Shown here: positions 52,959-52,985 of the stretch, in pieces | How positions within the stretch are numbered: position 1 is the stretch's first letter | Layout of the letters: each line of letters opens with the position of its first letter | Assembly: GCF_058153355.1 (NCBI RefSeq) | Contig: NZ_CM177019.1 | Strand: one strand, 5' to 3' | DNA: 64,000 nucleotides | Program-made: the position numbers and the translations under genes | The notes under the pieces: generated by a model | Databases searched by the model: none | What the model saw: the letters and a program-made list of their open reading frames with translations, nothing else | What the model was told of the DNA's origin: nothing

Positions 52959-52985
52959 TAAAGATTACCCGTCCCTTGCCGATAA
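52959..52985 (+). promoter_or_regulatory. Sigma-28 (FliA) class 3 promoter of flgMN
   Basis: TAAAGATT-N11-GCCGATAA, near-consensus, 44 nt upstream of flgM ATG. Confidence 0.75.

Follow-up and report, generated by a model that had tools for sequence, protein, structure and literature searches.

Does the survival of two well-formed flagellar promoters tell us that the circuit they belong to still works? The question is raised by a stretch of 64,000 nucleotides from NCBI RefSeq assembly GCF_058153355.1 (contig NZ_CM177019.1), which was analysed at its full length and is called the window hereafter. Its preliminary description placed a near-consensus sigma-28 promoter before flgMN and a weaker one before flgKL, and took both as confirmation that the wiring of the flagellar regulon is intact even though flgF is frameshifted. 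That flgMN and flgKL possess FliA promoters is already known biology. We consider it very probable that the motifs represent PflgM and PflgK, the canonical promoters of class 3, and that, in a strain with lesions in flgF and flgI, their firing by FliA is strongly reduced, as predicted below.

The window extends from cobB to past yceM and holds an E. coli-type flg cluster, recognised from the open reading frame listing and by aligning each gene with its counterpart in an annotated E. coli genome. After rne on the plus strand follow, on the minus strand, flgL, flgK, flgJ, flgI, flgH, flgG, flgF, flgE, flgD, flgC and flgB; beyond flgB lie the plus-strand genes flgA, flgM and flgN, and then murJ on the minus strand. 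The genes fliA and flhDC are located outside the window. Among complete E. coli genomes, the best match reaches 98.1% identity over 10 kb. Lesions among the flg genes are confined to flgF and flgI.

Two units defined by the listing and the alignment concern us here. The flgMN unit (53029..53743, +), driven by PflgM, consists of flgM (53029-53322, +), which encodes the anti-sigma-28 factor and is 100% identical in nucleotide sequence to flgM of E. coli R32_14_1F, and flgN (53327-53743, +), which encodes the FlgK/FlgL chaperone; both genes are intact and free of internal stops. Upstream lies flgA (52294..52953, +), which ends with a TAA stop at 52951-52953. The flgKL unit (42190..44798, -) consists of flgK (43155-44798, -; ATG at 44798) and flgL (42190-43143, -), both intact and encoding hook-filament junction proteins. 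It is preceded by flgJ (44864..45805, -), which closes the class 2 flgB operon and has a TGA stop at 44866-44864.

Several features were recorded away from the flagellar cluster. Relative to E. coli R32_14_1F, an insertion of ~1.28 kb (16073-17350) is present between ndh and ycfP. Its single open reading frame (326 aa, 16178-17158, -) carries the Pfam domains DEDD_Tnp_IS110 and Transposase_20, and the insertion is therefore an IS110-family element, which resembles IS621. It directly adjoins a REP-derived element of the Rfam family naRNA4 (17352-17427). At the start of the window, positions 1-1458 hold the 3′ portion of a group II intron, with a 432-aa open reading frame (79-1377, +) that contains RVT_1, GIIM maturase and HNH domains. 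The Rfam Intron_gpII domain (1382-1458) follows this frame. The intron is a neighbour of cobB (1532-2353, -), and synteny with the E. coli reference restarts only at 1455. Ordinary Rfam matches were found at the positions expected for E. coli: the rne 5′UTR element (38449-38785, +), the SraB sRNA (36420-36588, -) and the PyrC leader (60500-60549, +).

The flgMN promoter occupies a 28-mer at 52959..52986 (+), an assignment that draws on direct reading of the sequence, matrix scores, identity with K-12 and conservation. Its -35 element TAAAGATT (52959-52966, +) is separated by an 11-nt spacer, ACCCGTCCCTT, from the -10 element GCCGATAA (52978-52985, +), exactly as first described. The motif starts 5 nt past the flgA stop, within the 75-nt flgA-flgM intergenic region, and lies on the same strand as flgM, with 43 nt between the -10 element and the ATG at 53029. 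A single mismatch distinguishes it from the consensus (7/8 positions in the -35 element, 8/8 in the -10 element, N11), and together with the top matrix score in the window this bears out its reading as a near-consensus promoter.

The flgKL promoter is found as a 28-mer at 44831..44858 (-), assigned from direct reading, identity with K-12 and conservation. Here the -35 element is TCAAGTCC (44858-44851, -), followed by an 11-nt spacer and by GCCGATAA as the -10 element (44839-44832, -). The motif does exist on the minus strand as had been proposed, with the coordinates 44833-44858 one base off from the true span, 44858-44832. It had also been placed inside the 3′ end of flgJ. This is wrong: the motif is intergenic and starts 5 nt 3′ of the flgJ stop, within the 65 nt that separate flgJ from flgK. 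It shares its strand with flgK, with 33 nt between the -10 element and the flgK ATG (44798). It deviates from the consensus at three positions (-35 5/8, -10 8/8, N11).

How far do these motifs exceed chance? A consensus scan over the window (TAAAGTTT-N11-GCCGATAA, up to 3 mismatches) returned 3 matches against 0.64 expected. For a graded measure, the 52 motifs that Fitzgerald et al. 2014 list for their FliA ChIP-seq peaks (their Table 2; PMC4183435) were taken, flgM and flgK were omitted, and a position weight matrix was built from the 50 remaining sites; a second matrix used strong sites only, and 200 dinucleotide shuffles served as the null. The flgM site scores 24.6 bits and ranks first in the window, a value reached in 0/200 shuffles, and obtains 27.4 bits with the strong-sites matrix. 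By sequence alone it is far beyond chance. For the flgK site the first matrix gives 18.2 bits, the second-highest score, of which a shuffled window would hold ~0.03 by expectation; the second matrix gives 16.1 bits (rank 5), level with three intragenic matches. By the same measure this site is marginal. For comparison, the median of the 50 training sites is 16.45 bits. The matrix scan that the preliminary description had suggested as a check is thus clear for flgM and equivocal for flgK.

The three intragenic matches, at 16-18 bits, equal the flgK promoter in score. One lies in sense orientation inside flgD (50878-50905, -), one close to the 3′ end of thiK and a short distance upstream of nagZ (19124-19151, -) and one in antisense orientation in pabC (29262-29289, +), the latter two placed by coordinate mapping. 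The idea that the flgD match (50905-50878) might drive flgE from within the operon was set aside: the same sequence is present in K-12 and absent from the 52 published peaks, and we class the match as a look-alike that is either non-functional or below threshold. At the flgK site, the motif score alone cannot tell a real promoter from such intragenic look-alikes; position, conservation and binding data can.

The -10 octamer by itself is similarly ambiguous. GCCGATAA occurs 13 times in the window against 2.2 expected, and coordinate mapping puts 10 of these copies inside genes, so that its presence by itself is hardly informative. Only three copies are intergenic, and all of them lie just upstream of flg operons, namely flgB, flgK and flgM. 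A clearly positive -35 half-site accompanies just two of the 13 copies, those of flgM (9.2) and flgK (3.7), the others reaching at most 0.7. The copy upstream of flgB (52196..52203, -), which belongs to the class 2 control region shared by flgA and flgB and lies 56 nt from the flgB start codon, was rejected as a third FliA promoter. It scores 10.0 bits with a negative -35 half-site, K-12 has no FliA ChIP peak there, and overexpressed FliA fails to rescue flgB in K-12 (PMC4183435).

The other matrix matches and GCCGATAA octamers of the window resemble the weak intragenic FliA promoters described in E. coli and Salmonella (Fitzgerald 2014; Plitnick et al., bioRxiv 10.1101/2020.09.09.289983). Members of this class share a GCCGATAA-like -10 element, lie inside genes, have a degenerate -35 element and are themselves unconserved between species, whereas the flgM and flgK sites are intergenic, possess a recognisable -35 element and are found family-wide. 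A sigma-70 scan of positions 42000-56000 identified no gene-strand sigma-70-like promoter at either site; with 6 matches against 12 in shuffles, this explanation was dropped. An Rfam scan of the whole window returned no RNA family at either promoter.

Conservation was examined at two depths. Within the species, the 101-bp region around the flgM promoter is at least 99% identical in 5302 of 5425 complete E. coli genomes, and that around the flgK promoter in 5393 of 5424. Across the family, a sample of 80 loci from species-representative Enterobacteriaceae genomes was assembled, in which flgM and flgK were located by tblastn and the 160 nt upstream were scored. A FliA site of at least 18 bits precedes flgM at all 78 of 78 loci, and one of at least 14 bits precedes flgK at 63 of 64. 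For flgM, conservation reaches 0.95 in the -35 and 0.94 in the -10 element and falls to 0.73 in the spacer, of which 46 distinct versions occur; for flgK the values are 0.89, 0.96 and 0.55, with 54 distinct spacers. The flanks of both promoters lie at 0.61-0.67. Octamers conserved at a fixed distance of 11 bp around a drifting spacer are the footprint expected of sigma-factor contacts.

The same sample bears on the -35 element of flgK, in which TCAAGT is present at 62 of the 63 loci with a site. This near-invariance marks it as a maintained variant and not as decay. Leader lengths vary between species: the distance from the -10 element to the flgM ATG is 43-45 nt at 7 of 78 loci (43 nt in the window) and 57-66 nt at the rest, which makes the flgM leader of the former group ~17 nt shorter than that of the other loci (~60 nt from -10 to ATG), which probably include most genera outside Escherichia.

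Both sites can be compared directly with mapped FliA sites of E. coli K-12. The flgMN 28-mer TAAAGATTACCCGTCCCTTGCCGATAAA matches a K-12 FliA ChIP-seq site at 28/28 positions (FAT 48), as does the flgKL 28-mer TCAAGTCCGGCGGGTCGCTGCCGATAAT (28/28, FAT 47). These matches uphold the class 3 (FliA/sigma-28) identity that had been proposed for both promoters, and the occupancy of both sites by FliA in the present strain would be expected by analogy with the identical K-12 sites. Identity extends over the entire 75-nt flgA-flgM (52954-53028) and 65-nt flgJ-flgK (44799-44863) gaps, which are 100% identical to NC_000913.3, and the 154-nt flgA-flgB control region (52140-52293) shows no mismatch to K-12 over 152 aligned bases. 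The surrounding DNA has diverged from K-12, with 95.2-98.8% identity in the flanking coding sequence and 96.5% over the 14-kb locus.

The K-12 flgMN promoter (motif centre 1129409, NC_000913.2) shares the 28-mer, the intergenic region, the gene order and the distance to the ATG. No difference in cis separates the two promoters; the background differs, since flgF is frameshifted and flgI is 4 codons short here. The K-12 flgKL promoter (motif centre 1137556, NC_000913.2) likewise shares the 28-mer, the 65-nt gap and the dual regulation by read-through from flgB-J. It too is identical in cis, and the difference again lies in the background, where the premature stop in flgF might cut class 2 read-through into flgKL by polarity.

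Functional evidence from K-12 supports these assignments. Overexpression of fliA in an flhD deletion restores the expression of flgM and flgK (PMC4183435), and Hollands et al. include flgMN and flgKL in the set of eight sigma-28 promoters that they regard as well characterised in K-12, and report that CRP binding is absent at both (PMC2859248). In K-12 lacking fliA, flgK expression declines from 318 to 138 and that of flgM from 451 to 318, a modest change under the conditions tested (PMC4183435), from which it follows that the class 3 promoters give a minor share of the transcript there. The description of the flgK site as weaker is therefore apt in one respect only. Its -35 element does match the consensus less well than that of flgM (5/8 against 7/8), but occupancy in K-12 is equal (FAT 47 against 48), the loss of fliA lowers flgK more than flgM, and the flgK TCAAGT is near-invariant across loci. 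The flgK site is accepted as a promoter because its position, the K-12 ChIP data and its conservation support it.

The architecture is shared with Salmonella. For Salmonella enterica, PflgM and PflgK are outlined with the same organisation and the same dual class 2/class 3 logic (Kutsukake & Ide 1995; Wozniak & Hughes 2008; Wozniak et al. 2010). S. enterica subsp. arizonae has TAAAGATT-N11-GCCGATGA before flgM and TCAAGTCC-N11-GCCGATAA before flgK, and the Salmonella spacer sequences differ from those in the window. Mutational work, as summarised in PMC2859248, indicates that the Salmonella flgM promoter needs T-32, A-30 and the CGA of the -10 element. At the sequence level, both promoters of the window have the features of class 3: the two boxes with N11, the appropriate position and orientation, and conservation.

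Transcription from these promoters can be outlined by analogy. RNA polymerase carrying sigma-28 (FliA) would bind the -35 element (TAAAGATT or TCAAGTCC) and the -10 element GCCGATAA, 11 bp apart, and would start ~6 bp downstream of the -10 octamer, as mapped for the sigma-28 start of aer, 6 bp downstream of its octamer (PMC2859248). This rule predicts class 3 starts at 52990..52993 (+) for flgMN and 44823..44826 (-) for flgKL, and from these extrapolated positions we infer leaders of ~37 nt and ~27 nt, respectively. The products would be an flgMN mRNA and an flgKL mRNA whose 3′UTR yields the sRNA FlgO.

FlgO is a fliA-dependent, Hfq-binding sRNA processed from flgL mRNA (PMC10578931). The K-12 RefSeq annotation places the ncRNA flgO (b4826, 78 nt) directly 3′ of flgL, and mapping of this annotation assigns its equivalent to the flgL 3′UTR of the window (42113..42190, -), with 2 mismatches over 73 aligned nt at 42185-42113. 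A strong intrinsic terminator with a T-run (42148-42120, -) ends the flgKL transcript. The Rfam scan of the whole window carried no FlgO entry, as the family is absent from Rfam 15.

Both promoters begin 5 nt past the stop of a class 2, FlhDC-dependent unit (flgA and flgJ, respectively), and both operons are therefore dual-regulated, by read-through and by their own class 3 promoter. In K-12, flgMN overlaps the class 2 flgAMN unit, and read-through from flgB-J across the flgJ-flgK boundary was seen by RT-PCR (PMC4183435). PflgM would in addition provide negative feedback, since through this promoter FliA raises the level of the anti-sigma factor that restrains it.

We now turn to the lesions. 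The flgF pseudogene (48607..49358, -) has lost 4 bp, one TGGC of (TGGC)3, after ~49105 on the gene strand. Its frame stops after 111 codons and the window holds no compensating insertion; the frameshift reported for this gene is real. A sequencing error was considered and rejected, as an independent assembly shows the same junction, and so do two complete genomes. The independent assembly, GCA_015332025.1, has the identical junction and is 100% identical to the window over 42805-49890. The complete genomes E. coli 90-3040 and 2013C-3492 also carry the TGGC deletion, in flg loci ~96-97% identical to that of the window, and the flgF of 90-3040, with the same lesion, is called a pseudogene by PGAP. 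A linked T SNP is common to all sequenced deletion alleles, which suggests a single ancestral haplotype for the deletion.

The second lesion, a 12-bp in-frame deletion near 46517, is not mentioned in the preliminary description. It shortens flgI (45805..46890, -) from 365 to 361 aa. The exact 361-aa form of FlgI, the P-ring protein, is encoded on 5 public contigs, including those of GCA_015332025.1 and SRR28786219.

What would these lesions do to the promoters? FlgF is a proximal rod protein, and mutants in hook-basal-body assembly keep FlgM in the cytoplasm, where class 3 transcription is inhibited (PMC9307174). The hook-basal-body genes of the window are not all intact, given the flgF frameshift and the in-frame deletion in flgI, and flgM is intact. 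With flgF frameshifted and flgI 4 codons short, the hook-basal body is predicted to be incomplete, FlgM to be retained and FliA firing to be strongly reduced. Only class 2 read-through would then remain for flgMN and flgKL, provided that FlhDC is functional. This prediction assumes that the truncated FlgF (111 aa, or a possible 162-aa restart fragment) is non-functional, that FlhDC and FliA, encoded outside the window, are present, and that FlgM inhibits effectively. Hook-basal-body mutants do keep a low level of class 3 activity. The best reading is that the cis elements are intact within a circuit that is probably locked off at a checkpoint, the silent state being reasoned from the behaviour of such mutants.

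The strongest rival holds that the regulon is functionally wired and that, the flgF frameshift notwithstanding, PflgM and PflgK respond to FliA as usual. Identity of the cis elements and 5′UTRs with K-12 speaks for it, together with the lesion-free state of flgM, flgN, flgK, flgL and the other flg genes save flgF and flgI, and some natural strains with the same deletion have regained the frame through a +1 insertion, which makes the lesion bypassable. However, the window lacks such an insertion and its flgF frame is broken after codon 111; the retention of FlgM and the inhibition of class 3 transcription in hook-basal-body mutants (PMC9307174) apply where flgM is intact, as here; and the trans factors fliA and flhDC are not in the window. 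We regard normal firing as improbable. The earlier statement that the motifs confirm an intact wiring is unsupported for the same reasons: the intact parts are the cis elements, fliA and flhDC lie elsewhere, and the flgF lesion is of a kind that breaks the circuit via FlgM retention.

The natural strains just mentioned are the mouse isolates M19, M15, M11, M9 and M6, in which the TGGC deletion is joined by a +1 G insertion 13 nt upstream. In M19 and its relatives this insertion restores an in-frame flgF of 753 nt that is annotated as intact, and it looks like a natural intragenic frameshift suppressor. One could go further and propose that flgF loss is a recurring on/off toggle of flagellation, in which the loss of one TGGC locks FliA off via FlgM retention, while selection maintains the cis-regulatory regions because flagellar function can be recovered. 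The mouse isolates, with their deletion and compensating +1 G, fit such a proposal, which we hold to be improbable. If it were true, intact promoters in an flgF-minus genome would represent a reversible state and not recent decay.

A different rival leaves the checkpoint aside and reads the boxes as signals within the class 2 read-through mRNAs across flgA-flgM and flgJ-flgK, where they might govern how the RNA is processed, stabilised or translated. Both motifs are indeed transcribed within the flgAMN and flgB-L read-through mRNAs, and the 100% identity with K-12 covers the whole intergenic regions beyond the boxes. Across genera, though, conservation is concentrated in the two octamers of the FliA matrix, 11 bp apart with a variable spacer, which is the signature of sigma-factor contacts and not of RNA structure. 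FliA-RNAP moreover occupies exactly these two sites in K-12 (PMC4183435), and neither site belongs to an Rfam family. An RNA signal in place of the promoters is thus very improbable.

The notion that one or both motifs are chance matches without promoter function, GCCGATAA being merely over-represented in the genome (13 copies against 2.2 expected, mostly intragenic), can draw on an flgK score no better than those of three intragenic matches and on an flgD match that is identical in K-12 and not among the 52 published FliA ChIP peaks, but has next to no likelihood given that both sites are strong K-12 ChIP-seq peaks with the same sequence (PMC4183435), that each occupies a short gap between genes and is correctly oriented, that the 11-bp spacing is fixed over about 80 species while the spacers vary (46 and 54 distinct), and that no shuffle matches the flgM score.

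The reading of PflgM and PflgK as canonical class 3 promoters in a circuit held at its checkpoint carries a general caution for flagellar loci. A motif match is no proof of a working regulon: a broken rod gene should silence intact promoters via the FlgM export checkpoint. Finally, studies of how natural E. coli lose and regain motility may find some modest use in the flgF deletion that several strains share and in the allele that naturally compensates for it.
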